From: a virus
Strand: one strand, 5' to 3'
DNA length: 21,565 nucleotides
Virus genome (UHGV): UHGV-0142951
The notes beneath the pieces are model-generated. The model was given only the letters and a program-made list of their open reading frames with translations. It was not told the origin of the DNA and searched no databases. The translations under genes were made by a program, and so were the position numbers. Positions within the stretch are counted from its first letter, which is position 1, and the number at the start of each line of letters is the position of its first letter. Positions 2,812-21,565 of this stretch are shown here, one piece after another.

Positions 2812-2890
2812 ACATGGCAACTCAAGGTTTCGACAACCCATCCAAATTCCGCGATGAATGGGATAAGCAAGCAGAAGGGAAATAATCAAT

Positions 2891-4728: not shown

Positions 4729-4729
4729 T

Positions 4730-6928: not shown

Positions 6929-7018
6929 TTAACCCATAACGTGCAATGGCTGTCTTTATGAGGCCTGGCACCCTATTGCCTTCCGATGGGCTGAACATCG
7001 AGTAAACAGGGGTAACAA

Positions 7019-7915
7019 ATGGACCAGATGGCAGAAAACACACCAGAAGTTGAAATCGAAACCGACGCGTCAGAGCAGATTCCTGATGATGTCGAACTGG
7101 CTGAAGAAGTCGAAACAGCAGATGGCAGTGAGTCCTCAGGAAATGATGCAGAGGAAGCTACTGACACTGATGACGACGAATCAGAACAGGAATTCTACTT
7201 TGGTGACGAAAAGCTGGATTCGCCAACCAGCGAAGATGGCGCAGAGCATGGACTGGTAAAACACTTGCGCAAGACGATTAAAGAGAAAGACCGTGAGCTG
7301 AAAGAGCTGATGCGTCAGTCTCAGAAACCCGTCGAGCAGCAGCCGGTAATCACTCAACCACCGCGAATGCCAAAACTGGATGATGAGGACATCGGTTTCG
7401 ATGAAGAAATCTATCAGCAACGCATGGCTAAGTGGGCAGAGGATAACGGCAAATACCAGGAGCAAGTACGAGAGCGGAAACGAGAGGAAGAGGCGCGTAC
7501 CGCAACGCTTCAGCAGAAAGCAGCCAATTACATGCATAGAGTAAAAGCACTGAAAGTGGCTGGTTACCAGGATGCAGAGCAGGCTGTACGCGAAGATGTT
7601 CCTGTTCACATTCAGGACATGATCCTTCTTGAGTCAGAGAAGCCGGAAATCGTTGTTCTGGCACTCGGTCGCAACGCTGAACTGCGCAAGCAACTGGCAG
7701 AAGCTACCAACCCCGTAGCAATTGGTCGTCTGCTGGAACGTATCGAATCGAAGGCCAGAATCATGCCAAAAGCAAAAACCACGGCAGCCACAACCCCGAC
7801 AGTTAAGGGGAGCAACGGCGCAGTAATCAATAACCTCGACAAACTTCTCGAAAAAGCGCGCGACACCGGTGATTACACCGAATACCGGGCGGCGAAGAAC
7901 AAAGCTAAAAAATAA
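7019..7915 (+). CDS. Scaffolding protein (P22 gp8-like)
   Basis: ORF track 7019..7915, 298 aa. Highly acidic N-terminus, charged helical middle, basic C-terminal tail (YRAAKNKAKK). Sits between portal and coat; size close to P22 gp8. Confidence 0.8.
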   Translation: MDQMAENTPEVEIETDASEQIPDDVELAEEVETADGSESSGNDAEEATDTDDDESEQEFYFGDEKLDSPTSEDGAEHGLVKHLRKTIKEKDRELKELMRQSQKPVEQQPVITQPPRMPKLDDEDIGFDEEIYQQRMAKWAEDNGKYQEQVRERKREEEARTATLQQKAANYMHRVKALKVAGYQDAEQAVREDVPVHIQDMILLESEKPEIVVLALGRNAELRKQLAEATNPVAIGRLLERIESKARIMPKAKTTAATTPTVKGSNGAVINNLDKLLEKARDTGDYTEYRAAKNKAKK

Positions 7916-7935
7916 TCCATCGGAGCTAAATACCT

Positions 7936-9195: not shown

Positions 9196-9198
9196 TCC

Positions 9199-9225
9199 AA
9201 GGGGCTTCGGCCCCTCTTTTTTTTT
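9199..9225 (+). terminator. Strong rho-independent terminator immediately after the coat gene
   Basis: Stem AAGGGGC (9199-9205) / GCCCCT(T) with TTCG tetraloop (9206-9209), followed by a T9 run (9217-9225). Confidence 0.8.
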
Positions 9226-9235
9226 GGAGATCGAA

Positions 9236-9424
9236 ATGTCTCAAATCATGCTTTATAAGCCGGGATCGATGATCACCTGCGGCCCCCACTCGCTGGATTA
9301 CATCATCGTTGATGACGAAGAAGTTAAATCTCACCTGAAAAAAGGCTGGGTAAAAACTCCTGAAGAAACCGCAACGAAGCAAAAAGTGGCTAAGGCGGAA
9401 GAAGATGGCGAAAACGAAGGGTGA
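9236..9424 (+). CDS. Small hypothetical protein, 62 aa, between coat and gp4-like genes
   Basis: Internal ATG 9236 of track ORF 9068..9424 with GGAGA at 9226-9230, located right after the terminator. Protein MSQIMLYKPGSMITCGPHSLDYIIVDDEE... with acidic C-terminus. 3' end overlaps the gp4-like start. Confidence 0.45.
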   Translation: MSQIMLYKPGSMITCGPHSLDYIIVDDEEVKSHLKKGWVKTPEETATKQKVAKAEEDGENEG

Positions 9425-9866
9425 TCTCGTTCTAAAGGCTTTACGAAAAGCCGGGCTGTATTCCAATGCCACGTTGACAGATGCTGACCCTCAGGCAATT
9501 GAAGATGCCATTAATGACCTCGAAGACATGATGGCAGCATGGCAGGCTAAAGGTATCGAGCTTGGATATCAGTTTGCTGATACAGAAAACGGCATCATGC
9601 CGTTACCTGACGATGATTCAGGTATCCCTGCATGGGCAAATGATGGCGTCGCTTTGAAACTCGCTGTGCAAGTGTGCATGGATAACGTCATTCAGCCGTC
9701 AGACGCTCTCCTTACCGCTGCTGACAGTGCATATCAAACAATCTGTATCGCTTTAACCAAAATACCACCACTTGAGCGACGAAATGACATGCCTCGCGGG
9801 GCGGGGTTAAAAAGCGCGTTTACGTGGAATCGGTTTTACATCGAGAAAGATGATCCGAGTACGTGA
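9405..9866 (+). CDS. Tail adaptor / head completion protein (P22 gp4-like)
   Basis: ORF track 9405..9866, 153 aa. N-terminus KTKGDLVLKALRKAGLYSNATLTDADPQAIEDAINDLEDMMAAW resembles recalled P22 gp4; conserved gene order. Confidence 0.8.
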   Translation: MAKTKGDLVLKALRKAGLYSNATLTDADPQAIEDAINDLEDMMAAWQAKGIELGYQFADTENGIMPLPDDDSGIPAWANDGVALKLAVQVCMDNVIQPSDALLTAADSAYQTICIALTKIPPLERRNDMPRGAGLKSAFTWNRFYIEKDDPST

Positions 9867-9875
9867 GGTGAATAA

Positions 9876-11294
9876 ATGCCGATTCAGCAACTTCCGCTTA
9901 TGAAAGGTGTCGGCAAAGACTTTCGAAACGCCGACTATATCGACTATCTGCCAGTGAATATGCTGGCTACGCCCAAAGAAATACTCAACAGCAGCGGATA
10001 TCTTCGCTCATTCCCGGGCATTGCCAAACGTTCTGATGTGAACGGCGTATCGCGGGGCGTCGAGTACAACATGGCGCAGAATGCTGTTTATCGCGTATGT
10101 GGTGGTAAGCTGTACAAAGGAGAAAGTGAAGTCGGTGACGTCGCCGGAAGTGGTCGCGTATCAATGGCGCATGGTCGAACATCACAGGCGGTAGGCGTTA
10201 ATGGTCAACTGGTCGAATACCGCTATGATGGCACGGTTAAAACCGTCTCAAACTGGCCTACAGACAGCGGATTCACGCAGTATGAGTTAGGCTCAGTCCG
10301 CGACATTACGCGCTTGCGTGGGCGTTATGCGTGGTCAAAAGACGGCACTGATTCATGGTTTATCACTGACCCTGAAGACGAATCGCATCCTGACCGTTAC
10401 AGCGCACAATATCGCGCAGAATCTCAGCCGGACGGCATCATCGGCATCGGAACATGGCGAGACTTCATCGTCTGCTTTGGCTCATCGACGATTGAATATT
10501 TCTCCCTGACGGGCGCAACCACTGTTGGTGCCGCTTTGTATGTCGCCCAGCCATCGTTGATGGTGCAAAAAGGAATCGCCGGAACCTACTGCAAAACGCC
10601 GTTTGCTGATTCGTATGCGTTCATCAGCAATCCGGCAACAGGTGCGCCGTCTGTGTACATCATCGGCTCCGGTCAGGTGTCACCAATCGCCAGCGCGAGC
10701 ATTGAGAAAATCCTCCGCTCCTACACTGCTGATGAACTGGCTGATGGCGTGATGGAGTCTCTGCGCTTTGATGCTCATGAGTTGCTGATTATCCACCTTC
10801 CGCGCCATGTTCTCGTGTACGACGCATCTTCAAGCGCCAATGGTCCGCAATGGTGTGTGCTGAAAACAGGCTTGTATGACGATGTGTACCGCGCTATCGA
10901 CTTCATTTACGAAGGCAATCAGATAACGTGCGGAGATAAGCTGGAATCGGTTATCGGCAAATTGCAGTTCGATATCAGCAGCCAGTATGGGCTACAGCAA
11001 GAACACCTGTTGTTTACACCACTCTTCAAAGCTGAGAACGCCAGATGTTTTGATCTGGAAGTTGAATCATCGACTGGTGTCGCTCAGTACGCTGACCGCC
11101 TGTTCCTCTCTGCAACCACTGACGGCATCAATTACGGACGTGAGCAGATGATTGAGCAGAATGAACCGTTCGTTTACGACAAACGCGTTTTGTGGAAGCG
11201 AGTAGGGCGCATCAGGAAAAATGTCGGCTTCAAATTGCGCGTTATCACGAAGTCACCTGTCACTCTGTCTGGCGCTCAGATAAGGATCGAGTAA
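9876..11294 (+). CDS. Tail hub protein (P22 gp10-like)
   Basis: ORF track 9876..11294, 472 aa (same length as P22 gp10). GAGGTG upstream; position between gp4-like and needle genes. Confidence 0.8.
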
Positions 11295-11995
11295 TGGCTG
11301 ATTCGAATCTCAACACCCCTGTTATTGTGCAGGCGACGCGGCTCGATACATCAATCCTTCCACGCAATATATTCAGCCAGTCTTACCTGCTGTATGTCAT
11401 TAATCAGGGGGCTGATGTCGGCGCAATTGCCGGGAAGGCAAATCAGGCTGGTCAGGGCGCTTACGATGCTCAGGTGAAAAACGATGAACAGGACGTCGAA
11501 CTGGCAGATCACGATTCAAGAATCACCGCAAACACAAAAGCGATAAATCTCCTTGAGGTCAGGTTAACAACCGCCGAAGGGAAGATAGTCGTACTGCGTA
11601 GCGATGTTGATTACTTGCTGGATGAGGTTATCGATATTCAGGCGCATCTGGTCACTGTTGACAAAAGACTGGATGACGTAGAAAACGATGTCTCTGGCAT
11701 TAAGAGTGATTACGTATCGAAAACCGTAACAGAATCGCAGTCTCTTGCGTCACCGCTGGATGTAAAAACATCATATTCAGTTGATGGAATTCAGGTTGTT
11801 GGAGCAAGAAATACCGGATGGACTGCAGCCACAGGTACGCCACTTCTTGGCTCATTCAACGCTAACCAGTCATACACTGTCGGCACTACGTACACACAAT
11901 CCGAAGTCGCAGCTCTCGCTACAGGTTTGCAGCAGGCGCGGCAGCGTATTCTGGCGCTTGAAACAGCACTTAGATTACATGGGCTGATTGACTGA
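11294..11995 (+). CDS. Tail needle / cell-puncturing protein (P22 gp26-like), 233 aa
   Basis: Internal ATG 11294 of track ORF 11192..11995 (TAATG overlap with the gp10-like stop). N-terminus [35 protein letters not shown] and C-terminus ALRLHGLID match recalled P22 gp26. Confidence 0.85.
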
Positions 11996-12450
11996 TGATT
12001 ACATTCAAACCAACGCGAAACATCGACCTGATAGAAGCAGTAGGAAATCACCCTGACATTATTGCTGGAAGCAACAACGGTGATGGATACGACTACAAGC
12101 CTGAATGCCGTTACTTTGAGGTTAACGTGCACGGTCAGTTTGGCGGCATTGTTTACTACCAGGAGATTCAGCCGCTTACATTCGATTGCCACGCCATGTA
12201 CCTGCCAGAGGTTCGCGGATTCAGCAAGGAAATCGGGCTGGCGTTCTGGCGATACATTCTGACTAACACCACCGTTCAGTGCGTCACATCGTTCGCTGCA
12301 CGCAAATTCCGCCACGGGCAGATGTACTGCGCAATTATTGGCCTTAAGCGTGTAGGAACCATCAAGAAATACTTCAAAGGCGTGGATGACGTGACTTTTT
12401 ACAGCGCCACACGCGAAGAACTAATCGACTTCCTGAATCACGGGAGATAG
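11995..12450 (+). CDS. P22 gp14-like protein
   Basis: ORF track 11995..12450, 151 aa. TGATG overlap with the needle gene; conserved position before the ejection proteins. Assignment is mainly by synteny. Confidence 0.55.
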   Translation: MITFKPTRNIDLIEAVGNHPDIIAGSNNGDGYDYKPECRYFEVNVHGQFGGIVYYQEIQPLTFDCHAMYLPEVRGFSKEIGLAFWRYILTNTTVQCVTSFAARKFRHGQMYCAIIGLKRVGTIKKYFKGVDDVTFYSATREELIDFLNHGR

Positions 12451-12452
12451 CC

Positions 12453-13145
12453 ATGTTATATGCATTTAAGCTGGGCAGAAAACTGCGCGGCGAGGAACCT
12501 TATCACCCTGAAAAAGGCGGGAAGGGTGGCTCCGATAAAAGCGCAAAGTATGCAGCAGAAGCTCAGAAGTATGCCGCAGACCTGCAACATCAGCAGTGGC
12601 AGACGATCATGAAAAACCTTGCTCCGTTCACGCCTCTTGCGGAGCAGTATGTTAACCAGCTTCAGAACCTTTCCAGTTTAGAAGGTCAGGGGCAGGCACT
12701 TAACCAGTATTACAACTCTCAGCAGTACAAAGATCTTGCTGGTCAGGCTCGCTATCAGAGTCTGGCGGCAGCGGAAGCAACAGGTGGATTGGGTTCCACT
12801 GCAACCGGTAATCAGTTAGCAACAATCGCACCAACGCTTGGTCAGCAGTGGCTGTCTGGTCAGATGAACAACTACAACAACCTGGCAAACATTGGCCTTG
12901 GTGCGCTGCAAGGTCAGGCAAACGCCGGGCAGACATATGCCAACAACATGAGTCAGATTTCGCAGCAAAGTGCGGCTCTTGCCGCTGCTAATGCCAATAA
13001 ACCATCAGGCCTTCAGACAGCAATTAGCGGCGGAGCTTCAGGGGCTATGACTGGCGCTGCTCTTGGCTCTATTGTTCCAGGACTTGGCACTGGATTAGGT
13101 GCGGCAATTGGCGGCGGACTTGGCCTGCTTGGCTCGTTGTTTTAA
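12453..13145 (+). CDS. Ejection (internal virion) protein, P22 gp7-like
   Basis: ORF track 12453..13145, 230 aa (P22 gp7 is about 229 aa). Q-rich middle and Gly-rich hydrophobic C-terminus (GLGTGLGAAIGGGLGLLGSLF). Synteny. Confidence 0.7.
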   Translation: MLYAFKLGRKLRGEEPYHPEKGGKGGSDKSAKYAAEAQKYAADLQHQQWQTIMKNLAPFTPLAEQYVNQLQNLSSLEGQGQALNQYYNSQQYKDLAGQARYQSLAAAEATGGLGSTATGNQLATIAPTLGQQWLSGQMNNYNNLANIGLGALQGQANAGQTYANNMSQISQQSAALAAANANKPSGLQTAISGGASGAMTGAALGSIVPGLGTGLGAAIGGGLGLLGSLF

Positions 13146-13154
13146 GGGGTAATC

Positions 13155-14621
13155 ATGGCTACTTGGCAAGGAACAAATGGCGGATTGTTGGCTGGTATCG
13201 GTGGTGTCAACTCAAACGCTCCGAGCGTAAATGACATCGGCAATACGCTTCAGCTTATCAGGCAGAACAATGATATTGAGCGTTCAGGCGCTAACAATGT
13301 TGGGCTGACTGCTTTGCAAGGCCTTTCAGGTATTGCAGGGGTGTTTCAGCAGGAAAAGCAGGCTCAGCGGCAGAAAGAATTTCAGCAGGCGTACGCTAAT
13401 GCTTATGCGTCTGGTGATCGCGGTGCTTTGCGTCAGTTGGCTACTCAATATCCAGACCAGATTGAATCTGTTCGCAAAGGCATGGGATTCATTGATGAAG
13501 ACCAGCGCAATTCTATCGGCACCTTAGCGGCTGGCGCACGCCTTGCGGCCTCGTCTCCAGAAGCAATGCAATCATGGCTGCAAAACAACGCCAAGGAACT
13601 GACTCGCGTCGGTGTTGACCCTAATAACGTTGCTCAGATGTATCAGCAGAATCCTTCAGGATTTGGTGAGTTTGTTGATCACCTTGGGATGGCTGCTCTT
13701 GGTCCGATTGATTACTTCAATGTTCAGGACAAGATGGCTGGTCGTGAGATTGACCGAGGCAGACTGGCAGAGACAATCCGCAGCAATCAGGCTGGTGAAG
13801 CACTTCAGGCGAGAGGGCAGGATATTAGCCGAGCAAATGCGTTAACGTCAGCATATGCACCAACAGCCGCAATGCAGAATTACAATCAGTACGCGCAAAT
13901 GTTAAAGGTAGATCCAGATGGTGCAGCGGCATTTGCGGCAGCGGCGGGAATTAATCCCAATGCTAAGAAATTACTTAAGGTTGAAACCAATCCTGATGGC
14001 TCGGTAACTAAGTATTACACCGATGGCAGCGAGGAAGCCGGAAAACTAAACCAACCTATATCTGGTGATGGCATTAAACCAATTAGCTTGCCACAAGCGC
14101 AAAGCATCATAGATAAGGCTAATGAGGGTTCCAAGAAGGCGGCGGGATTTGCTTTGCGATTAAAAGATTCAATGGACTCAATGAATCAGCTTAGTAAAAG
14201 CATTGACCCTAAGCGAGTTGCATTAATAAATCGCTCTCTTGGTGATGGAACTATTGCAAATTTAAGCCTATCACCAGCGGAGCAGCAATATATGGTAAAT
14301 GCGAGAGACGCCTTGTATGCAATTTTGCGCCCAGAAACAGGTGCAGCAATTACTCTGCCAGAGATGCAGGAGTATTCCAAAATGTACCTCCCTCAGCCCG
14401 GTGATTCCAAGGCTGCTACTGAAACAAAAATGCGAAAAATGCAGGGCCAATATAACTCATTACGTGGTCAGTCTGGTCGCGTTTATGATGCTTTGGTGGT
14501 TTCAAGTGCTGCAAATAGTCAACAACAGAGCAATAGCCAACAACCGACAAATACCCAACAGCAGCAGAGTCAATCCGGATCATATACCTCAAAATCAGGC
14601 ATTCAATTTACGGTGGAATGA
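13155..14621 (+). CDS. Ejection protein, P22 gp20-like
   Basis: ORF track 13155..14621, 488 aa. AAGGGG upstream; synteny between the gp7-like and gp16-like genes. Confidence 0.7.
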
Positions 14622-16849
14622 TGAAAGTAACTGCAAACGGTAAGACATTTACCTTTCCTGATGGTACGAGCACCGAAGATATTGGCACCGCCATTGATGA
14701 GTATTTTGCTGGTCAGGCTGTTCAGCAACAAACAGTTAATCAGGCCAATAATGCACCAACACGGGAAGAACCATCATTGATGCAACAAGCTGGCGATTGG
14801 CTCACTGGTGGTCAAAGTGCAGAGCAAATTGCAGAACAGGCTGGTCGTGGTCTGGTAAACATACCATTTGACGTATTGCAGGGTGGCGCAAGTCTGATTA
14901 ATGCAATCAGTCAGGGGCTTGGGGGGCCAAAAGTATTGGATGATGTTTATCGTCCAGTAGACAGACCGACAGACCCCTACGCGCAAGCTGGAGAGTCAAT
15001 AGGCGGTTATCTTGTTCCTGGAGCAGGTGTAGCTGGAAACATGGTCATTGGTTCTCTCGCTGACGCGGCGAATCAACGGGGTGATTTTGCCGAAAATGCC
15101 GCTATTAATGCCGGACTTAACATTGCTACGCATGGCCTGATAAATGGCGTTACCCGTGGTGTTCGTGGTGCATCAAATATAATTAGTGGCAATAAAATAT
15201 CTGCACAGAGAGCGACCACTGCGCCAACAGAAACATCACCATTCTCCGGTGATGCCGCTGCAGCAACAAATCCTGCGGTTCATGCCGCAGAGGCAAGAGT
15301 AGCACAAGGTGTACCAATGACGCCTGCGACGAGGAACCCAGAGGAAGTCGTTCGCACAGTAGCAGCACAAAAAAGGCCAAATCTCGCTTCATCGCTTGAT
15401 GAACTAGATATCAATCCTCAGGCTGAAGTTCTGGAGTCTGCTGAAAGGCTTAATGTTGATTCATTACTCCCTTCACACTTTTCCGGGAACGAGCAATACA
15501 AGGCAGTTGAGCAAGCAATCAAGTCCCGTGCGGGTTCTGCTCTACAGGTGCAGGAAAATGAAGCAATCAGGCAGCTAGCACAGGGCGCGGGGGAGATAAT
15601 TGATCGCGTTTCCGGTGCAAAAGATGCTCTTGGTATGAGCGACAAGTTTATTGATACGGTCAATGGAAGAATGTCTGCGCTGATGAAACGAAGCGACCAG
15701 CTTTATCGCAATGTTGAAAAGGCGATGCCTGCAGGTGCAAAAATTGATGCGCCATCAACAAGGTCAATGCTCAAACAGGTGGCAGAAGATCTTGGCGGGA
15801 TGAAAAACCTTGACCCTATTGAAAAGAGAGTCTTTCGGGCAGTTAATCCAGGCAAGAACGGCGCATTAACTTATGCAAATCTCAATAAGCAACGACGACT
15901 TGTTGGTGATGCACTTCATAGGAATTCTGGACCATATAAAGATACTGATCGCGCTGCTTTATCGAGGCTTTACGGTTCGCTCGCCGATGATCAAAAGGCG
16001 GCGCTGTCAGAGACAAATGCATTACGTGATTTTGAAGTTGCTCAGAGGCTTGTTCAGATGCGAAAAAGCATGGAAGAGCAAATGATTAATCTAACTGGCA
16101 GAACGCTGAACGGTGATGTTTCTCGCAAAGCAACTACAGCACTACAGGCAATGTCGAAAGGCGATGCCAAAGGATTTCGTGAATTGATGCAAAACACGCC
16201 GTCCAGGAAGCTAAGAACCGAGCTACTGGGAACAGGTCTTCGGGATATGCTTTCGAACGGAAAACGTGGCGCTGATTTTAATCCTGCAGGGTTTGCTGAC
16301 TGGTATCAAAACATGTTAGCAAACGGGCAGATGCGCAATCTTGCCCGACATTTACCAAAAGAGACTATGTCAGGTCTGAACGATGTATATAAGGTCGCAA
16401 AGGCTATCAAAGACGCAAAATCTTACGAGATAACCACAGGAAGACTAAACGAGTTCGTCAAACGGTTTAATCGCGTCACTGCGGCAAATGAATTTGTTGC
16501 TAACCATGCCCAACGCATTGGCACTGCGGTTGGTTCAACTGTGTCAGGACCGTTCAGTGCAGTAGGTGCTGTTGCTGGGTCAGAAATTGGGGCAAAAGTC
16601 GCCAGCAAAATCAGGGCGATGGGCGGCGCTGCATCAATGGAATCTGCAGAAAAGCTAATTAGCTCACCAGAATTCCAGAAAGCAGCAAGGCTGGCAGTAA
16701 AACAAGCACCAGAAAGCATCGTTGATACAACTGTAAGACGCTCTTCTGCTTGGCGCTCGTTTTACAACTCACTTCCAGAATCAGATAAGAAAACCATATC
16801 AAGGCTAGGCATCATGTACTGGATGAACAGTGATGATAACCAGAAGTAA
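14618..16849 (+). CDS. Ejection protein, P22 gp16-like
   Basis: ORF track 14618..16849, 743 aa. Overlapping start (ATGATGA) with the gp20-like stop; last gene of the virion module. Confidence 0.7.
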
Positions 16850-16866
16850 CGGAAAGCCACGGATGG

Positions 16867-17037
16867 TTAGTTGCTGTCTTTTTTATATAAATCTCTGAGC
16901 GTATCAAAGACAATTTTCTTTACCATATCGGATTGTTGGTCTGCAATACGCGATGCTATTGGTAGCGATGAATTCAATCGCTTGTCGAGAGCTGGTATTG
17001 TCGCCTCGTTAAGCGGTATGAATGAATATGAATAGCT
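16867..17037 (-). pseudogene. 3' remnant of an mnt-type repressor gene (C-terminal about 56 codons, no start codon or RBS)
   Basis: Minus-strand frame continuing directly after the lipoprotein stop codon translates to ...LPIASRIADQQSDMVKKIVFDTLRDLYKKDSN*. This closely matches the recalled C-terminus of P22 Mnt (...RLADEQSELVKKMVFDTLKDLYKKTT). The N-terminal RHH part is absent. Confidence 0.55.
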
Positions 17038-17523
17038 TTATCTAATGTTGCTGCTACTGTTGCATGTGACGGTGTTTCCAAATCCTGAATTGCAGTTTGT
17101 ATATGTGTCAACGCGTGTTGGGTAAGGTTGAGTTATAACAGGCTGGCGCGCTTTTTGCTCGATCGCTTGCATTGTGTTTACAGCCTGATAATTCAATAAA
17201 GCCTGCTGGAATGCTTGGCTTTGCGCTATTTGTTGGGCTTGTTCTTGGCTTTGTAATTGAACATAAAGATTCTGAAGTTCAAGTCTTGCCTGTGTGTCAC
17301 TTATCTTGCCTTCATCGACACCTTGCCCGAGCATCTTCGCAGCAAGGACATACAGCTTAGGTGTTGGTGCTGATGCCATGCGAGAGTCGTTCTTCAAGCT
17401 GGCATCAAGGCAATTAGCCATATCGCTAAGCTTTGGATAGCGTTGCTCGCAACTTGCCTGATAGTCGCTTACTTTTGCGCACCCAGCCAGCAGAAGCGGG
17501 ATAATTAACAGTGATTTTTTCAT
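17038..17523 (-). CDS. Predicted lipoprotein of unknown function, 161 aa (accessory gene)
   Basis: Internal ATG (17521-17523) of track ORF 17038..17574 with AAGGAGAG upstream. Signal peptide MKKSLLIIPLLLAGC with lipobox LLAGC; Gln-rich helical middle; Cys-containing C-terminus. Lower GC than the structural genes (by eye). Confidence 0.7.
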   Translation of the reverse strand: MKKSLLIIPLLLAGCAKVSDYQASCEQRYPKLSDMANCLDASLKNDSRMASAPTPKLYVLAAKMLGQGVDEGKISDTQARLELQNLYVQLQSQEQAQQIAQSQAFQQALLNYQAVNTMQAIEQKARQPVITQPYPTRVDTYTNCNSGFGNTVTCNSSSNIR

Positions 17524-17557
17524 ATAATTAACTCTCCTTAGTTTTGCGCAGGATACC

Positions 17558-17923
17558 ATGAAAAAAGTTAACATTGGAAATGTACCAAAGATGCTAGTAC
17601 CGCTCTTTGAGAGCGGTACAATTGTGTTTTGTAGAGACTTTCCAGAATGGCAACGCCTGCATCAAAAACTTGGCGTTGACGTGCATGACTCGGACGCCAA
17701 CGGAGCGTCTCATACAATGAGTAGCGAGAATGGTGTTTTGCATGTGATAGGCGTGTTCAATGGCAAACTATCTACTATTGCCCATGAGTGCGCTCACATG
17801 GCATTCGATATCTGCTCAAGGGTAGGTGTTGATGTTGAACCAGGAAGAGCCAACGAGACTTACTGCTACTTAATGAGCAGGCTTGTTGAGTTCTGCGAGC
17901 GACATATCAAAAAGCCGGAGTGA
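17558..17923 (+). CDS. Small HExxH zinc-metallopeptidase-like protein, 121 aa (possibly ImmA/IrrE-like)
   Basis: ORF track 17558..17923. Motif STIAHECAHMAF (His76-Glu77-x-x-His80) with candidate third ligand in VEPGRANETY (Glu94/Glu100); the context resembles the recalled ImmA/IrrE signature (..LAHELGH.. / ..E.EAN..). Divergent from the lipoprotein gene, start codons 34 bp apart. Confidence 0.55.
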   Translation: MKKVNIGNVPKMLVPLFESGTIVFCRDFPEWQRLHQKLGVDVHDSDANGASHTMSSENGVLHVIGVFNGKLSTIAHECAHMAFDICSRVGVDVEPGRANETYCYLMSRLVEFCERHIKKPE

Positions 17924-17931
17924 CCCGGCTT
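17907..17931 (-). terminator. Candidate rho-independent terminator for the minus-strand small gene
   Basis: 7-bp stem AAGCCGG (17912-17918) / CCGGCTT (17925-17931), loop AGTGAC. On the minus strand it is followed by a U-run (plus-strand A-run 17909-13), 5 nt past the stop of gene 17937..18116. Confidence 0.45.
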
Positions 17932-17936
17932 GAGTA

Positions 17937-18116
17937 TTACTTTTTGCTGTCTGGAGTTCGCTTATCCAATACCCAGCCATGACCTGGCTTTGTTGTTGGT
18001 GGAAGCCTTTCGTTGTCCTTGACGGTTGCAAAATTGTCTTTCTTACCGCCGCGTGGGCCAACTTCTTGGTATATTCCGCCGTTTTTTCCTGTGTTTTCAC
18101 CTGGTTTTTTCGCCAT
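17937..18116 (-). CDS. Small basic Gly/Pro-rich protein, 59 aa (YjzC-like pattern, tentative)
   Basis: Internal ATG (18114-18116) of track ORF 17937..18131 with GAGG 6 nt upstream. Protein MAKKPGENTGKNGGIYQEVGPRGGKKDNFATVKDNERLPPTTKPGHGWVLDKRTPDSKK, no hydrophobic segment. Has its own candidate promoter and terminator. Confidence 0.5.
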   Translation of the reverse strand: MAKKPGENTGKNGGIYQEVGPRGGKKDNFATVKDNERLPPTTKPGHGWVLDKRTPDSKK

Positions 18117-18152
18117 GATATACCTCAACATATACCCGTTATTGGGCGATTA

Positions 18153-18181
18153 AATATTGATCTCATTTTATAAGTAGTCAA
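18153..18181 (-). promoter_or_regulatory. Candidate sigma70 promoter for the minus-strand small basic protein gene
   Basis: Minus strand reads TTGACT (plus 18176-18181), 17-nt spacer, AATATT (plus 18153-18158), about 35 nt upstream of the RBS. Confidence 0.3.
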
Positions 18182-18206
18182 TATGGCCCAGGTAAATGCA
18201 AAAATT

Positions 18207-18231
18207 AACCCACCGTCAGGTGGGTTTTTTT
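18207..18231 (+). terminator. Rho-independent terminator (strong on the + strand, A/T-flanked on both sides)
   Basis: Perfect 8-bp stem AACCCACC (18207-18214) / GGTGGGTT (18219-18226), loop GTCA, then a T7 run (18225-18231). Confidence 0.7.
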
Positions 18232-18263
18232 ATCTTCTCTACTTTAAAGATTAAGGAAATACC

Positions 18264-18449
18264 ATGACCATAGAAGAACGTCTGAACAACATTGAGTTGA
18301 ATCAAACCCTGCTTGACCAGCGACTTTCAGATCTTGAGCTTAAAGATCTAGATGTGCAAATATCAGAAGCAGAAGCCAAGCTCTCCAGCTTAAACCACCG
18401 CAGGAAGCAAATCCGCGACAGAATTACTCGTGGACGCGGAGGCTGTTAA
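18264..18449 (+). CDS. Small coiled-coil protein with basic C-terminus, 61 aa, hypothetical
   Basis: ORF track 18264..18449. AAGGA RBS 7 nt upstream. Heptad-like Leu/Ile pattern (IEERLNNIELNQTLLDQRLSDLELKDLDV) then RRKQIRDRITRGRGGC. Confidence 0.45.
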   Translation: MTIEERLNNIELNQTLLDQRLSDLELKDLDVQISEAEAKLSSLNHRRKQIRDRITRGRGGC

Positions 18450-18526
18450 GGTGTGATGGTAATCCTTGCTCACTAAATTTAAGGATGCGAATCTTTCCGG
18501 CCATAGGAGTAATCATGATTTACCCA

Positions 18527-19063
18527 TCAAACAACCCACCAGTTTGCCTGATTGGATACCAGCCTTGCAGTTTTTATGGAATTAATTATGCCATGCTCAA
18601 GAGCCTTGTTAGCATCCAAAATGGTCGAGTCTGCTATCAGGGATGCCCACCTAATATGGGTTCCGATGTCGATATTGAACGTCTCAACGAAGCGATCAAG
18701 ATCGTTATCGAGGCATTTCCCGTACTCTCTCAATCTGGCATGGTCGGCGGCTGGGGAGGCAAAGCACCATAATAGAGGATGTAACAGGAATCTTGATAAT
18801 GGGTTTGCGAAACGTTCTGAGCCAGCCAGGAAAACGATATTAGCTATGGATTCAACATTGCTTATGTTGTGAGTTCTAACGGTAACAGGGAGTGACTTAA
18901 GAAAGTTATACGCAGTAAAGCCAGCGGCAGTTTCCCCTCCCTGACTTGATATATGGATATTTAATTCAGTTGCGCCTTGAGATAATGCGGTGAGACAGTG
19001 GTTCTGAAGTTGCCCAACAGTGGCAGTGTTAACGGGGCATAAGAAATGAATTGTGTGCAGCAT
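18527..19063 (-). CDS. ClpP-fold (S14-like) serine peptidase, 178 aa, translationally coupled to the upstream Mnt-like gene
   Basis: ORF track 18527..19063. Hand alignment to recalled E. coli ClpP: ISSQGGETAAG vs INSPGGVITAG; Ser72 (VESIA) aligns with the ClpP catalytic Ser (GQAASMG); RFANPLSRFLLHP vs RFCLPNSRVMIHQP places His95 at the catalytic His; C-terminal ALEHGIINSI vs AVEYGLVDSI with Asp145/Asp150 nearby. Start ATG overlaps the upstream stop by 1 nt (TAATG). AAGGA RBS lies inside the upstream gene. Confidence 0.65.
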   Translation of the reverse strand: MLHTIHFLCPVNTATVGQLQNHCLTALSQGATELNIHISSQGGETAAGFTAYNFLKSLPVTVRTHNISNVESIANIVFLAGSERFANPLSRFLLHPLLWCFASPAADHARLREYGKCLDNDLDRFVETFNIDIGTHIRWASLIADSTILDANKALEHGIINSIKTARLVSNQANWWVV

Positions 19064-19314
19064 TATTTTTCATCCTTAGCATACATGGTCTTTAGCGTCT
19101 CAACATCGTGTTCAAGATCTATCAATCGTGATGCTATAGTTGCAAGGTCTAGTGCTTGAATGTGTTTATTTTTTTCTGTCCACGCTTCAAGTGCCGCGAC
19201 CATCTCAGCATTTAATGAACGAGAATTAGCCTCAGCCAGTTCAATAAGACGTTCCTTTATCTCTACAGGAAGCCTCAGATTCACTTGAGGGTTTTTGTAC
19301 TTACGATCAGACAT
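19063..19314 (-). CDS. mnt: Mnt-like ribbon-helix-helix repressor, 83 aa
   Basis: Track ORF 19063..19320 begins at a GTG; preferred ATG 19312-19314 with AGGA 7 nt upstream. NPQVNLRLPVEIKERLIELAEANSRSLNAEMV resembles recalled P22 Mnt (DPHFNFRMPMEVREKLKFRAEANGRSMNSELL). C-terminal helix ...VETLKTMYAKDEK. Confidence 0.7.
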   Translation of the reverse strand: MSDRKYKNPQVNLRLPVEIKERLIELAEANSRSLNAEMVAALEAWTEKNKHIQALDLATIASRLIDLEHDVETLKTMYAKDEK

Positions 19315-19331
19315 CGGCACATCCTGAATAA

Positions 19332-19571
19332 TTATTTACCATACATGGTCTTTAGCGTCTCAAGTAGCGCCTCTTTGAATTTATCAGCTTCTTGGTTAGC
19401 GAATCCTTCAAGTGAGCGAGAGCCATCAAGATTATCAACATGTTTTTGAAGGATAAGCACGATCTCTGAGTTCATTGATCTGCCGTTTTTATCCGCTTCT
19501 TGCTGAATGCGTTTCTTTAAATAGTCTGGAATCCTAATCCCCAATGGACTGATATCTCTTGCACCTTTCAT
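19332..19571 (-). CDS. Second RHH repressor paralog, 79 aa (Arc-like N-terminus MKG..., Mnt-like C-terminal extension)
   Basis: Internal ATG (19569-19571) of track ORF 19332..19613 with GGAGGAGAA directly upstream. ISPLGIRIPDYLKKRIQQEADKNGRSMNSEIV is an RHH fold; C-terminus ...LLETLKTMYGK. Occupies the mnt position beside the divergent promoter region. Confidence 0.7.
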   Translation of the reverse strand: MKGARDISPLGIRIPDYLKKRIQQEADKNGRSMNSEIVLILQKHVDNLDGSRSLEGFANQEADKFKEALLETLKTMYGK

Positions 19572-19596
19572 TTCTCCTCCTGCACGCTGTGCATAG

Positions 19597-19666
19597 CTAC
19601 ACAGTGTAGGCAAAAAAATTTTGACTTTAAATAAACACGGTGTAGTATTTAGTTATCACGGTGTAG
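19597..19666. promoter_or_regulatory. Candidate operator cluster in the divergent mnt/arc control region
   Basis: Near-perfect palindrome CTACACAGTGTAG (19597-19609) plus two direct copies of CACGGTGTAG (19636-19645 and 19657-19666) spaced 21 bp apart. Four TGTAG/CTACA half-sites within about 70 bp between divergent RHH genes. Confidence 0.45.
19621..19648 (+). promoter_or_regulatory. Candidate Pant-like sigma70 promoter driving the arc-like and ant genes
   Basis: TTGACT (19621-19626), 16-nt spacer, TAGTAT (19643-19648). Overlapped by the CACGGTGTAG repeats. About 30 nt upstream of the arc-like RBS AAGGGGA. Confidence 0.4.
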
Positions 19667-19679
19667 CAAGCAAGGGGAA

Positions 19680-19820
19680 ATGAAAGTTAGAGACATCGCT
19701 CCATTAGGGATTCGTATCCCGCCAGAGATTAAAGAAAAATTGAAGGAAAAGGCTAAGGAGGAGGGCAGGTCTTTAAATTCAGAAATAGTGCAGCGTCTTA
19801 TTCGCAGCCTAAAAAGTTGA
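19680..19820 (+). CDS. arc: Arc-like ribbon-helix-helix repressor, 46 aa (below the ORF-track size cutoff)
   Basis: ATG 19680 with AAGGGGA upstream; stop TGA 19818-19820. My translation: MKVRDIAPLGIRIPPEIKEKLKEKAKEEGRSLNSEIVQRLIRSLKS, an RHH fold (beta strand then ..GRSLNSEI.. helix) as in recalled P22 Arc. Position immediately upstream of ant as in P22 immI. Confidence 0.7.
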   Translation: MKVRDIAPLGIRIPPEIKEKLKEKAKEEGRSLNSEIVQRLIRSLKS

Positions 19821-19884
19821 AGCCCCAACTGCGGGAACAGTCAGGGCTTCGGTATCGTAAAACCACGCATAGGAATTAACGACA
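19811..19884 (-). ncRNA. Candidate sar-like antisense RNA covering the ant ribosome-binding site
   Basis: Minus-strand promoter-like TTGATT (plus 19913-19918), 17 nt, TACACT (plus 19890-19895) inside the first ant codons. Minus-strand hairpin (7-bp stem 19819-19825 / 19844-19850 with inner 4-bp stem) followed by AAC then a U5 run (plus A-run 19811-19815). Predicted RNA of about 70 nt, complementary to the ant SD and start, analogous to P22 sar. Confidence 0.3.
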
Positions 19885-20807
19885 TGACGAGTGTAGCAAT
19901 TGCAGAACATACAATCAACGTTCCATTCCACGGAACAAATCTCTTTTTGGTCAGCATTAACAATGAACCTTACGTTCCTATGAAACCCGTTGTAGAAGGC
20001 ATGGGTATGGTTTGGGCTGCTCAATTTGTTAAATTAAAACAGAGATTTGTCAAAGGTATTTCGGAAATCGAAATACCTTCTGCTGGCGGTAAACAGTTAA
20101 TGATATGCCTTGCCTTTCGTAAGTTTGCGGCTTGGCTTTCAAGCATTCAGCCAAACAAAGTCCGCCCTGAAATCCGCGACAAGGTAATCCAGTATCAGGA
20201 AGAGTGTGACGATGTGCTCTACGAATACTGGACTAAAGGCCATGTAGTTAACCCGCGCAAAGCTAAAAAGGCATTGCCGGGGAAAATCACCACTGAACAG
20301 CAGGAAGCCATTAAACAACTCGTCATGAGTCGCGGTCAGTCTCTTCCAAAAGAAAAACAGGCTAAGGCGATGATCACCATGTGGTCGTCACTGAAATCCC
20401 ATTTTGGATGTTCGTACAAAGAGATCAGTGAGGAGCAGTTTACCGAAGCACTATCACTTGCAGCTCGAGTTCCACTTGAAGGTGAGTTCATTGGCAAACA
20501 AGAGAAGAAAGCAAACGAGCTTTCTGCAAAAGAAGCAAACAGCCTTGTATGGTTATGGGATTATGCCAACCGCTCACAGGCATTATTCCGCGAACTGTAT
20601 CCGGCGCTAAAACAAATTCAATCGAACTATTCCGGCAGATGTCATGACTGCGGTTATGAGTTCTCCCGTATTATCGATATGGCGAGAGATGTTTTAATCA
20701 ACCATACACGAGATGTTGATATTAATGAGCCAGACGGACCAACGAATCTTTCCGCATGGATGAGACTTAAGAATAAAGAATTACCTCCTTCAGTACATAA
20801 CTACTGA
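19884..20807 (+). CDS. ant: Antirepressor (P22 Ant-like)
   Basis: ORF track 19884..20807, 307 aa. AGGA 8 nt upstream; directly downstream of the arc-like gene and followed by a terminator, as in P22 immI. N-terminal region (VPFHGTNLFLVSINNEPYVPMKPVVEGMGMVWAAQ) is consistent with the P22 antirepressor N-terminal domain as recalled. Confidence 0.65.
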   Translation: MTSVAIAEHTINVPFHGTNLFLVSINNEPYVPMKPVVEGMGMVWAAQFVKLKQRFVKGISEIEIPSAGGKQLMICLAFRKFAAWLSSIQPNKVRPEIRDKVIQYQEECDDVLYEYWTKGHVVNPRKAKKALPGKITTEQQEAIKQLVMSRGQSLPKEKQAKAMITMWSSLKSHFGCSYKEISEEQFTEALSLAARVPLEGEFIGKQEKKANELSAKEANSLVWLWDYANRSQALFRELYPALKQIQSNYSGRCHDCGYEFSRIIDMARDVLINHTRDVDINEPDGPTNLSAWMRLKNKELPPSVHNY

Positions 20808-20825
20808 CAGATAACCAACGCAACG

Positions 20826-20849
20826 ACCCAGCTTCGGCTGGGTTTTTTT
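20826..20849 (+). terminator. Rho-independent terminator after ant
   Basis: Stem ACCCAGC (20826-20832) / GCTGGGT (20837-20843) with TTCG tetraloop, then a T7 run (20843-20849). Confidence 0.8.
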
Positions 20850-20907
20850 ATGCCCAAAATTCACCGTAGCCATGCTGCGGCGATTCCTTGTATCTGGAGC
20901 AAATTAA

Positions 20908-21565
20908 ATGACAGATATCACCGCAAATGTTGTGGTAAGCATGCCTTCGCAACTCTTCACTATGGCGCGTTCTTTTAAAGCTGTAGCCAATGGCAAAATT
21001 TATATCGGTAAAATTGACACTGACCCGGTAAATCCTGAAAACCAGATTCAGGCTTATGTGGAGAACGAAGACGGCTCTCACGTTCCTGTTTCGCAACCAA
21101 TCATCATTAACGCTGCTGGATATCCGGTATATAACGGACAGATTGCCAAGTTCGTTACCGTGCAAGGCCATTCTATGGCTGTTTATGATGCGTATGGTGC
21201 GCAGCAGTTCTATTTTCCTAATGTGCTGAAGTATGACCCTGATCAACTACGGCAGCAATTAGAAGACCCAGATGGAGCGAATAAATACCCAAAACTTCAG
21301 ATAGCAAGATGGAGAGACAGTTATGATGTAAGAGGTTGGGGGGCTATTGGTGATGGTGTTCATGATGATACATCAGCTCTATCAGAATTACTTTCTGTTG
21401 CAACAGGTGGTGAAAAGATAGATGGGCGAGGGCTTACTTTTAAAGTATCAACTCTTCCAGATGTCAGTCGATTTAAAAATGCTCGTTTTTTATTTGAGAG
21501 AATACCGGGTCAGCCTCTTTTTTATGCTTCTGAAGATTTTATCCAGGGAGAGTTATTTAAAATTA
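20908..21565 (+). CDS. Tailspike protein, N-terminal part (conserved P22-type head-binding domain, then the start of a divergent receptor-binding domain); truncated by the window end
   Basis: ATG 20908 with GGAG 8 nt upstream. My translation [59 protein letters not shown]...[31 protein letters not shown] matches the recalled P22 gp9 head-binding domain. Downstream sequence ([24 protein letters not shown]) resembles the start of a pectate-lyase-type beta helix. Not in the ORF track because it has no stop within the window. Confidence 0.9.

Follow-up and report, generated by a model that had tools for sequence, protein, structure and literature searches.

The DNA separating the last virion gene from the tailspike gene in this viral genome is very probably the 'ant moron' or immI region of a P22-like temperate phage, in a copy assembled by several recombination events. 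The window, that is, the whole stretch of DNA that we analysed, comprises 21,565 nucleotides of UHGV virus genome UHGV-0142951. A fast-changing, hypervariable 'ant moron' locus in P22-like phages has already been published (Villafane et al. 2008, PMC2629481; PMC8022706). Here, the last virion gene of the left backbone encodes a gene-16-type DNA ejection protein of 743 aa (14618-16849, plus strand, from the ORF list), and the interval from its end to Pant contains two hairpin terminators and small genes whose orientation alternates. A sequence-only reading had described such an arrangement for a block at 16867-19330, and the genes, ribosome-binding sites and terminators are all present where it had placed them; a Shine-Dalgarno-like sequence, read directly from the sequence, precedes every listed gene of the block. 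The same reading had ascribed to the block a lower GC content than that of the flanking structural genes. This holds (43.7% versus 49.6% in 1-16849, where the lowest value of any 2464-bp window is 46.6%), but the right flank of mntB, arc and ant is equally GC-poor (42.9%), so low GC characterises the entire interval between genes 16 and 9 and not 16867-19330 alone. The terminator scan detected 11 terminator-like sites in the region, against 3.8 +/- 2.0 in shuffled sequence. Comparative evidence supports reading the block as an accessory mosaic: of 50,697 phage records and 5,426 complete E. coli genomes, none covers at least 80% of 16600-19900, and the gene order is not conserved in either collection. 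The exact order is seen in the source contig alone; the identical IMG/VR contig (L040) is that source and not independent support.

At the left edge lies the 3' relic of an Sf101/UMNF18-type mnt gene (16867-16951, minus strand), comprising approximately the last 27 codons and the stop, with neither start codon nor promoter. The 36-codon ORF at this position (16867-16977, minus strand) matches Pfam Repressor_Mnt (PF11423; E = 3.4e-13), and the intact mnt genes that adjoin gene 16 in E. coli UMNF18 and in Sf101 have 3' ends 91-94% identical to the relic DNA. These intact genes align to the window no further than 16951; the Pfam match and the alignment bear out the earlier identification of an mnt 3' fragment. 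Joined to it is the 3' relic of a different gene-16 allele (16943-17035, plus strand), recognised by translation and nucleotide match and consisting of the last 30 codons and the stop. Its translation, AIRDAIGSDEFNRLSRAGIVASLSGMNEYE followed by a stop, is exactly how the gene-16 protein of E. coli EC23HZZ201 ends, and its DNA shows 100% nucleotide identity to 'DNA transfer protein' genes. The two relics have 9 bp in common (16943-16951; microhomology GC[C/A]ATACGC), which is the sole overlap when the two parental forms are aligned separately, at query positions 1-62 and 54-147. As judged from these alignments, mnt was joined illegitimately at the left junction, through this 9-bp microhomology, to the terminal 93 nt of a foreign gene-16 allele. 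The gene-16 relic arrived together with the lipoprotein gene that follows it. The same junction is found in 10 of 5,426 E. coli genomes, among which strain M172-1 carries other cargo beyond 17020.

This junction bears directly on the proposal that homologous recombination between mnt alleles delivered foreign cargo into an ancestral mnt gene, with the relic and the right-hand mnt genes as the two ends. The left edge does hold an mnt 3' relic and the right part intact mnt genes, and mnt tails have been reused as crossover sites elsewhere in the region, as witnessed by a 28-bp repeat and by hybrid Mnt proteins. Nevertheless, the relic is joined to the 3' terminus of a gene-16 allele and not to an mnt gene, which already contradicts the proposal for the left junction. 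Furthermore, the window lacks the 5' part of the Sf101-type mnt, the replacement reaches as far as the tailspike gene, and mntA and mntB, the intact Mnt-like genes correctly anticipated at the right, have their full length and a ..ETLKTMY(A/G)K.. tail instead of the ..DTLRDLYKKDSN tail of the relic. We thus consider the proposal unlikely as a whole, while its idea of mnt 3' ends as recurrent crossover points stands. The intact genes were also considered as the missing 5' half of the relic, and were rejected as such on account of their full length and different C-terminal tail.

Comparison with Sf101 and UMNF18 defines the extent of the exchange. In both, the gene16-mnt-tailspike arrangement is intact, with an 86-aa mnt and nothing else there, and both match the window up to 16951 at 98-99% identity (UMNF18 99%, Sf101 98%) through gene 16, a 17-nt spacer and the last ~85 nt of mnt. 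UMNF18-like homology picks up again at 20893. Identity is 90-96% in the stretch preceding the tailspike gene, and the start of that gene (20908-21565, plus strand, recognised by translation), which runs off the window end, is 96% identical to UMNF18; hence both flanks are UMNF18-like (left 99%, right 96%). Relative to a backbone of this type, 283 bp have been replaced by 3.9 kb (16952-20892) that include arc, sar and ant, and the end at 19330 previously assigned to the block falls well inside the replaced segment.

We propose that the backbone was originally minimal (gene 16 -> mnt <- tailspike), like that of Sf101 and UMNF18. One illegitimate crossover would have joined mnt, ~85 nt before its stop, to the gene 16 of another phage, 93 nt before its stop, and a second crossover, a homologous one close to where the tailspike gene starts, would have finished the exchange, turning 283 bp into a 3.9-kb composite region. 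The position of this right-hand crossover is approximate, because it is located in sequence conserved among all P22-like phages. The composite region would itself have been built previously from modules breaking at recurring points, namely the Shine-Dalgarno sequence of the sieA slot, a hairpin holding the last mnt codons, the conserved 28-bp mnt tail and the terminator after ant.

Part of the composite is shared with the P22 immI region (Sauer et al. 1983). Both regions occupy the same position, between genes 16 and 9, and both contain an mnt gene divergent from arc-ant, the sar RNA, a PsieA-driven slot, hkcC, orf59a and t_mnt. Some 700 bp spanning hkcC, orf59a and the PsieA region (17534-18230) are 97% identical to P22, in which PsieA, t_mnt, orf59a and the mnt stop are annotated. 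The present region differs from P22 in carrying a lipoprotein gene in place of sieA, two tandem mnt genes of different specificity instead of one, a ClpP-like gene and a 61-aa ORF within the mnt transcription unit, CACRGTGTAG repeats where P22 has its Omnt and Oarc sequences, and relics of an older mnt and a foreign gene 16 at the left edge. The hkcC homologue (17558-17923, plus strand; PHROG 1365; 121 aa), in late-operon orientation, has an HExxH motif followed after 19 residues by a glutamate; H76, E77, H80, N99 and E100 are invariant in 18 homologues, and the AlphaFold2 model has a mean pLDDT of 89. Convergent with it is the orf59a homologue (17937-18116, minus strand; PHROG 3202, E = 1.3e-31; annotated in P22), which encodes a small, basic, Gly-rich protein of 59 aa and whose transcript is ended by an intrinsic terminator equivalent to P22 t_mnt (17931-17912, minus strand; terminator scan and P22 annotation). 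The two genes move as a convergent pair in unrelated prophages. Being 97% identical to P22, they and PsieA are therefore ordinary immI content, and not the foreign cargo for which the HExxH and small basic proteins had been taken.

The pair is bounded by a bidirectional hairpin terminator (18207-18230, both strands; 18207-18226 in the scan), which alignment identifies as a second mnt relic and a module boundary. Embedded in the hairpin are the last four codons and stop (15 nt, 18216-18230) of a P22/Ecol_881-type mnt ending ..KKPT, and homology to P22, L005, L006 and L007 stops at 18230-18232. These 15 nt inside the hairpin and the gene-16 relic at 16943-17035 are two features absent from the sequence-only reading. 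Beyond the hairpin, in late-operon orientation, lies a coiled-coil ORF of 61 aa (18264-18449, plus strand; PHROG 7586, E = 1.1e-43), which resembles XhlA weakly (E = 0.02, beneath the Pfam cut-off). It also gave the sole match of the cargo, for which a defence or anti-defence role had been suggested, to the PADLOC models, to PbeC at a level that is not convincing (E = 0.001, 15.7 bits); these models returned no match for the ClpP-like protein, the lipoprotein, hkcC or orf59a.

As stated in the earlier reading, the P22 annotation places sieA and mnt at the corresponding position. In the sieA slot of the window lies a gene for a 161-aa lipoprotein (17038-17523, minus strand; PHROG 6067, E = 3.8e-109), with a signal peptide, the lipobox LLAGC, Ala at position +2 and a helical domain with a Gln-rich helix. 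The lipobox residues G14 and C15 are invariant in 24 homologues, and the P22-like prophages of Morganella and Serratia invariably have the gene in convergent orientation to gene 16. The Shine-Dalgarno sequence and PsieA promoter region that drive the gene in this slot (17524-17612, minus strand; sequence comparison and P22 annotation of PsieA) are shared: the lipoprotein gene of the window, sieA of P22 and a 109-aa gene of SW070919 are all preceded by one and the same sequence, from the Shine-Dalgarno sequence outwards. For exclusion in P22, a stretch of 85 bp upstream of sieA is enough (PMC10883804). The lipoprotein gene is like P22 sieA (Leavitt et al. 2024, PMC10883804) in slot, orientation, Shine-Dalgarno sequence and promoter region, and in being tightly linked to gene 16 across genera; the proteins, however, have no sequence similarity, SieA being a multi-pass inner-membrane protein (PMC10883804) and its counterpart here a lipoprotein with a signal peptide. 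By this analogy, the lipoprotein is most likely an envelope protein that excludes superinfecting phage.

To the right, mntB (19332-19571, minus strand; Pfam Arc; PHROG 2685; 79 aa) is the mnt gene adjoining the promoters, and its product has the beta-strand motif PLGIRIP common to Arc. The control region (19597-19666, both strands), delineated by motif search and promoter scan, holds three CACRGTGTAG operator-like repeats (19600-19609, 19636-19645 and 19657-19666; 0.03 expected by chance) and Pant (-35 at 19621-19626, -10 at 19643-19648, plus strand; promoter scan). A weak candidate Pmnt was read by eye on the minus strand (-35 at 19631-19626, -10 at 19608-19603) and matches 8 of 12 consensus positions, below the scan threshold. 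There follow arc (19680-19820, plus strand; 46 aa; Pfam Arc, E = 5.2e-13), the sar antisense RNA (19815-19882, minus strand; Rfam RF00262, 84.6 bits against a gathering score of 43, E = 2e-17) with its terminator (19850-19819, minus strand; terminator scan), and the gene for the 307-aa antirepressor Ant (19884-20807, plus strand; Pfam P22_AR_N E = 7e-40, P22_AR_C E = 1.3e-27). Most likely, by analogy, MntB and Arc would repress Pant via the three repeats and sar would act as antisense regulator.

To the left of mntB, mntA (19063-19314, minus strand; 83 aa) encodes a protein with a ribbon-helix-helix N-terminus (Pfam Arc, E = 3.2e-10), and the 28-bp repeat lies at the tails of the two genes (19076-19103 and 19336-19363). 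MntA shares its N-terminus with the primary Mnt found in another immI type, the protein being the same as the primary Mnt of strain 203740 to approximately residue 65, bar one residue (A/V at position 44), and its C-terminus is the conserved tail ..ETLKTMYAKDEK, which is linked to clpP. A motif search found no cognate operator of MntA's Mnt type in the window, and MntA is most likely a second repressor specificity without an operator in cis. Terminator scanning places a terminator after ant (20825-20844, plus strand); as the boundary in strain MS 196-1 indicates, it is the right end of a mobile clpP-mnt-arc-ant module (18505-20848), of which a 99% identical copy lies between lambda-like tail genes L and K in that strain.

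The same module encodes a PpClpP1-type ClpP-like serine peptidase of 178 aa (18527-19063, minus strand; Pfam CLP_protease, 44.4 bits with a cut-off of 20.2) that is truncated at the N-terminus. The mntA stop and the start of this gene overlap (TAATG), and the terminator scan found no terminator directly after the gene. An Mnt homologue stands directly upstream in all 44 full-length IMG/VR loci with at least 79% identity to the protein, with the conserved tail ..LK(T/K)(M/I)Y(G/A)KD(E/D/N)K in 42 of the 42 where the ORF parser resolved Mnt, and in none of the 33 loci at or below 74% identity. In all six look-ups (13 places) the gene was prophage-located and antisense to flanking lytic genes. 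It is a prophage moron. One might instead suppose that the cargo serves the lytic cycle as part of the core genome, the ClpP-like protein as head-maturation protease and hkcC as morphogenesis or lysis factor. The block does sit inside the late operon, and the nearest PHROG and NCBIfam families are ClpP-related head-maturation proteases, albeit far under their cut-offs (49 versus 120 bits). Against this, the gene runs antisense to the late operon in the window, as it does to lytic genes in every other prophage context examined, P22, Sf101, UMNF18 and most relatives lack it, the gene order is not conserved, and P22-type capsids are known to mature without a prohead protease; we regard a lytic role as highly improbable. 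It is also unlikely that the block is decaying recombination debris, its ORFs functionless passengers in a transient dead end. Three gene relics in the block, an arrangement confined to the source contig and an MntA without cognate operator in the window would fit such decay. Every cargo ORF is nevertheless intact with a ribosome-binding site, each cargo family is kept across genera, the lipobox G14/C15, hkcC H76/E77/H80/E100 and ClpP-like S72/H95 are invariant among homologues, and translational coupling links the start of clpP to mnt in the 45 related loci with an upstream mnt.

A functional immI region of composite origin, our preferred reading, carries expectations for the lysogen. Going by orientation and by P22, the lysogen probably expresses the genes that run antisense to the late operon: the lipoprotein gene from PsieA, orf59a, and the operon mntB-mntA-clpP-like from Pmnt. 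Those in late-operon orientation (hkcC, the 61-aa ORF, arc and ant) are, on the same grounds, probably expressed lytically or upon derepression. Over its full length, the ClpP-like protein shows 40% identity to PpClpP1 of Pseudomonas plecoglossicida, an atypical ClpP with a solved structure (PDB 9UXT). Both are truncated at the N-terminus, both keep the catalytic Ser and His (S72/H95 here, S73/H96 in PpClpP1), and the third triad position, not Asp in either protein, is Ser146 here and Pro151 in PpClpP1. The gene here is phage-borne and fused to the mnt operon, whereas PpClpP1 is treated as a chromosomal paralogue in PMC12900304, where prophages are unmentioned. PpClpP1 forms a homotetradecamer without ClpX binding and, with canonical ClpP, a heterotetradecamer of higher activity (PMC12900304). 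By analogy, the ClpP-like protein is most likely a low-activity tetradecamer unable to dock ClpX, and it may, like PpClpP1, co-assemble with host ClpP and so alter Clp proteolysis in the lysogen.

The window covers the late region of a temperate E. coli phage that is P22-like (Lederbergvirus-type), and the block of small genes within it belongs to a known kind of region. The block is positioned inside the late operon, between the end of the gene-16-type ejection protein gene (14618-16849, plus strand, from the ORF list) and the tailspike ATG at 20908 (plus strand), as immI is. The encoded Ant (19884-20807, plus strand) matches Pfam P22_AR_N and P22_AR_C, and sar RNA (19815-19882, minus strand) was detected at full length by Rfam with 84.6 bits against a gathering score of 43. 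RHH domains are present, mnt is divergent from arc-ant, and three operator-like repeats are predicted over the -10 and +1 of Pant, itself a predicted promoter (19621-19648, plus strand). Both mnt products, MntA (19063-19314, minus strand) and MntB (19332-19571, minus strand), match the Arc domain of Pfam alone, without a match to the Mnt C-terminal model. In P22-like phages this insert has been termed the ant moron, a fast-changing and independently expressed element of the late operon between genes 16 and 9, which in P22 contains sieA, hkcC, orf59a, mnt, arc, sar and ant and which exists in ten versions among sixteen genomes (PMC2629481); the region is also treated in PMC8022706 and PMC10883804.

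The sequence-only reading described small genes in alternating orientation with their own ribosome-binding sites and terminators, low GC content and pieces of mnt, and this description holds in every particular in the map drawn from the ORF list, Pfam, PHROGs and Rfam. GC content is 43.7% in the block compared with 49.6% in the structural genes, the lowest value for any 2464-bp upstream window being at least 46.6%. The region contains 11 terminator-like sites, against 3.8 +/- 2.0 in shuffled sequences; mapped terminators lie at 17931-17912 (minus strand), 18207-18226 (bidirectional) and 20825-20844 (plus strand). In P22, sieA and mnt are expressed in the lysogen. The minus-strand lipoprotein gene, orf59a, clpP-like gene, mntA and mntB are therefore predicted by analogy to be lysogen-expressed. 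The plus strand is the direction of the late operon, and hkcC, the 61-aa ORF, arc and ant may be reached by late or derepressed transcription. This division would account for the alternating orientation of the genes.

The feature is real and accessory; what varies at the locus is the combination of its parts. P22 is 97% identical to 17534-18230 of the window, over a P22 stretch that spans the annotated PsieA, t_mnt, orf59a and mnt stop, and hkcC and orf59a are consequently standard content as opposed to foreign cargo. At least 80% coverage of 16600-19900 was found in none of 50,697 phage records and none of 5,426 complete E. coli genomes; some piece of this interval occurs in 742 of the latter. 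Among 46 close ClpP-carrying IMG/VR loci, megablast found all segments together in the source contig only (IMGVR_UViG_3300045988_119584), which matches 14530-21565 at 100.000% over 7,036 nt and is not independent support. Hypervariability of the locus has already been described, and the known picture of a hypervariable moron is unchanged. The earlier proposal of foreign cargo inserted into an ancestral mnt gene thus survives in outline, but not in its left-edge mechanism, its extent of exchange or its assignment of hkcC and orf59a as foreign.

The left edge preserves a junction for which both parents can be recognized. Sf101 and the UMNF18 prophage possess between genes 16 and 9 one intact mnt (86 aa), convergent with gene 16. 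The window follows this arrangement with 98-99% identity through gene 16, a 17-nt spacer and the last ~85 nt of mnt, ending at 16951; this mnt 3' relic (16867-16951, minus strand) was identified from the ORF list and Pfam. From 16943, the sequence matches the final 93 nt of another gene-16 allele at 100% identity; in EC23HZZ201 and others, this allele directly precedes the same lipoprotein gene. The peptide encoded by this second relic (16943-17035, plus strand), AIRDAIGSDEFNRLSRAGIVASLSGMNEYE followed by the stop, is identical in the window and the EC23HZZ201-type allele. When a junction-spanning query was used, intact mnt genes aligned to positions 1-62 and intact gene-16 genes to 54-147, and the sole overlap between the two parental matches is a 9-bp microhomology, GC[C/A]ATACGC, at 16943-16951. 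Recombination between mnt alleles had been suggested for this edge; instead, the relic is joined through the microhomology to a gene-16 3' end, and the left junction is an illegitimate join of mnt to a foreign gene 16. The window lacks the 5' part of the Sf101-type mnt, and mntA and mntB, being complete and having a different C-terminal tail, are not the other half of the relic. The joined mnt/gene-16 form is present in 10 of the 5,426 E. coli genomes. One of these, M172-1, possesses the same junction up to 17020 followed by wholly different cargo, indicating that later exchanges followed the junction.

On the right side, the exchange does not end at 19330 as previously supposed: UMNF18-like sequence resumes only at 20893, 15 nt before the tailspike ATG, with 96% identity. 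Measured against the UMNF18-type backbone, 3.9 kb including arc (19680-19820, plus strand) and ant stand in place of 283 bp that comprised mnt codons 1-58 with the mnt promoter. Gene-16 alleles themselves vary greatly in length (743 aa here, 911 aa in Sf101, where a transglycosylase is annotated, and 609 aa in P22); their C-termini are unrelated, despite the preserved junction being situated at the 3' end (window 14618-16849 compared with 1270-4005 of locus L009, a retrieved comparison locus). In EC23HZZ201 (1374-2081 of the retrieved locus), an IS1A abuts the start of the gene-16 homologue, where the prophage is apparently truncated, and its ant moron lacks mnt through ant with deletion endpoints at boundaries used in the window (18232, 20791).

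Further boundaries recur within the block. At 17524-17534, sieA in P22, the lipoprotein gene in the window and a 109-aa gene in SW070919 all start behind an identical Shine-Dalgarno sequence and upstream region, and this boundary works as a cassette slot. At 18230, homology to P22, Ecol_881, EC23HZZ201 and M172-1 stops 15 nt into a P22-type mnt 3' end (encoding a terminal KKPT); this mnt end, inside the 18207-18226 hairpin, is a second mnt relic. A module (18505-20848) has its left boundary at ~18500-18505; MS 196-1 (NZ_CP146681, 4001-6344 of the retrieved locus) carries it with 99% identity in a lambda-like siphovirus prophage, where clpP-mntA-mntB-arc-sar-ant is flanked by tail genes L and K. 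Hence, the immI module has moved between phage morphotypes. Tail gene K of MS 196-1 encodes a C40 peptidase. Lastly, a 28-bp repeat at 19076-19103 and 19336-19363 corresponds to the ETLKTMY-containing tail of both mnt genes.

This tail links mnt to the clpP-like gene. A ClpP-like relative is encoded by 127 IMG/VR contigs, from which 80 loci were retrieved for neighbourhood counts. A Mnt homologue lies directly upstream of clpP in all 44 full-length loci with ClpP-like identity of at least 79%, and in none of the 33 loci with identity of 74% or lower; a 5'-truncated clpP copy (locus L088) lacks an upstream Mnt. In 42 of the 44, those resolved by the ORF parser, Mnt ends in the conserved tail LK(T/K)(M/I)Y(G/A)KD(E/D/N)K, which overlaps the ribosome-binding site and start of clpP. 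At least six N-terminal DNA-binding strands are found on this tail (LGIRIP, QVNLRLP, HFNFRMP, QFKLRLP, SPTTVRIP and QINIRIS), from which it follows that clpP travels with the mnt 3' end and recombines within mnt. The idea that mnt alleles serve as recombination sites is therefore borne out for the clpP-linked tail, though not for the left junction with its gene-16 partner.

Tandem mnt arrays are rare, with two genes in the window and in MS 196-1, and three in L046 (IMGVR_UViG_2541047931_000005). In the window, a 7-bp overlap, TTTACCA, connects mntA to the mntB stop that precedes it; mntA has kept its own 5' UTR there, without its promoter or operator. MntA is the primary Mnt of 203740 through approximately residue 65, bar one substitution (A/V at residue 44); the 203740-type operator candidate GTATGCGTACCACATAC has no match in the window at up to 3 mismatches. 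203740 (NZ_CP025913, 4623-8067 of the retrieved locus) itself carries two tandem ant-moron modules, with mnt/arc present twice and a truncated Bro-N antirepressor between them, and the second mnt and a 104-aa gene are followed downstream by its lipoprotein gene. In L046 (3209-4001), three tandem mnt genes with strands LGIRIP, QVNLRLP and the P22-type HFNFRMP lie upstream of clpP, which points to a stacking of repressor specificities.

Against 0.03 occurrences expected by chance, the window contains three copies of the motif CACRGTGTAG, all of them within 19600-19666. One copy is the perfect palindrome CTACACAGTGTAG, overlapping a weak minus-strand candidate mnt promoter (read by eye, 8/12 consensus positions), and the other two cover the Pant -10 and start. 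The three repeats share one common half-site. MntB and Arc have in common the N-terminal strand PLGIRIP, within nearly identical N-termini (DISPLGIRIP and DIAPLGIRIP, respectively), and we infer that both would bind the CACRGTGTAG repeats. In P22, Arc and Mnt recognize different operators, unlike the situation implied by the nearly common strand here.

The ClpP-like protein (178 aa; 18527-19063, minus strand) scores 44.4 bits against a threshold of 20.2 for Pfam CLP_protease, and its family, comprising ~180-aa proteins of Enterobacterales and a few other genera, gives a profile that matches many solved ClpP structures (E = 1e-10 to 1e-6). PpClpP1 of Pseudomonas plecoglossicida, an atypical ClpP whose structure was solved recently (PDB 9UXT), shows 40% full-length pairwise identity and a family profile E of 2.6e-48. 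S72 and H95 are invariant in 20 homologues and align to S73 and H96 of 9UXT, the residues essential in PpClpP1 (PMC12900304). An Asp was not found at the third triad position, which is S146 here, varying between Ala, Ser and Thr across the family, whereas PpClpP1 has a Pro (PMC12900304). The protein begins at Pfam profile position 37 of 182 and so lacks the N-terminal axial loops for ClpX/ClpA docking, a truncation shared with PpClpP1. The PpClpP1 homotetradecamer has a wide pore, low peptidase activity and no ClpX binding; with canonical ClpP it forms a heterotetradecamer that is more active with ClpX (PMC12900304). By analogy, this suggests that the phage protein may modulate host Clp proteolysis. 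The original description treats PpClpP1 as a chromosomal paralogue of ClpP that has diverged (PMC12900304); E. coli phage proteins, with 39.8% identity, are its nearest phage matches in GenBank, and identities of 42-49% are seen in four IMG/VR contigs.

All contexts examined place the clpP-like gene in a prophage, on the strand opposite to the neighbouring lytic genes. In Klebsiella, Citrobacter and Leclercia it lies between the genes for lysis and terminase, in Proteus beside the N gene, in Chromobacterium between the genes for lysis and tail fibres, and in Pectobacterium and the E. coli P22-likes after mnt. This placement is characteristic of a prophage-expressed moron, and in the E. coli/Pectobacterium clade the gene has been captured by the mnt operon. 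A head-maturation protease was considered as an alternative identity and was rejected on the basis of orientation, distribution and sub-threshold scores in PHROGs and NCBIfam, the latter returning ClpP/head-protease matches below threshold only.

The lipoprotein (161 aa; 17038-17523, minus strand) possesses a signal peptide and lipobox, MKKSLLIIPLLLAGC, in which none of 24 homologues departs from G14 and C15. Members of the family occur across the Enterobacterales, and in P22-like prophages the lipoprotein gene is always convergent with gene 16. In Serratia it follows mnt, and in Morganella no other gene separates gene 16 from the tailspike gene. It shares with SieA only position, promoter region and gene-16 linkage: P22 identity ends at the Shine-Dalgarno sequence, and the protein has no Pfam match and is neither homologous to SieA types A-C nor of the multi-pass inner-membrane type. 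Searching solved structures by sequence gave no match. For P22, 85 bp of sequence ahead of sieA are enough for exclusion (PMC10883804). The most economical guess for this lipoprotein, which is not a SieA homologue, is that it might perform an analogous exclusion role.

The hkcC product (121 aa; 17558-17923, plus strand) contains HExxH with a downstream Glu, as in gluzincins, and H76, E77, H80, N99 and E100 are invariant in 18 homologues (43-78% identity). The motif spacing is that of thermolysin; the sequence match in a solved-structure search is weak (E = 0.09 or worse). The confident predicted structure has a small sheet in front of the two helices that carry the motif, and fold searches did not identify a peptidase. 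With the convergent 59-aa gene, the orf59a homologue (17937-18116, minus strand), hkcC also forms a pair within siphovirus prophage tail-gene clusters of Klebsiella oxytoca and Rosenbergiella, indicating a mobile two-gene unit. In the three retrieved loci from these hosts (L037-L039), the pair lies beside the tape-measure gene at ~4001-4563, independent of immI. The 61-aa coiled-coil ORF (18264-18449, plus strand) encodes a conserved phage protein (PHROG 7586); its assignment as an XhlA haemolysin was rejected, since the match (E = 0.02) does not reach the cut-off and the protein lacks a transmembrane segment. NCBIfam returned no match for the lipoprotein, hkcC, orf59a or the 61-aa ORF. Among the nine proteins searched with PADLOC 2.0, the lipoprotein, hkcC, orf59a, ClpP-like, Mnt, Arc and Ant proteins had no match, and the 61-aa ORF gave a marginal coiled-coil match only (E = 0.001, 15.7 bits).

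More far-reaching roles can be proposed, although we consider this reading improbable. The conserved mnt tail together with the ClpP1-like gene may be a lysogen-expressed device: a phage-borne paralogue of ClpP, blind to ClpX, would assemble jointly with host ClpP and retune Clp proteolysis, protecting lysogeny or hindering a superinfecting phage; stacked heterologous Mnt repressors (two here, three in L046) would widen immunity to antirepressors of other immI types; and hkcC (late sense, metallopeptidase-like) with orf59a (antisense) would form a two-part module, the product of one gene acting against that of its partner.

Taken together, the locus provides an unusually clear record of how a phage mosaic forms: the junction is preserved, both parental forms still circulate, and later exchanges fell at a few recurring boundaries. 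The points that stand out are a phage-borne PpClpP1-like protease fused to a conserved mnt tail, stacked Mnt repressors, a conserved, gene-16-linked lipoprotein that is a candidate non-SieA exclusion factor, and the hkcC/orf59a pair. Enterobacterial members of the PpClpP1 clade, wherever examined, reside in prophages antisense to lytic operons, and this setting offers a lead, open to testing, as to the reason for a ClpP paralogue in temperate phages.
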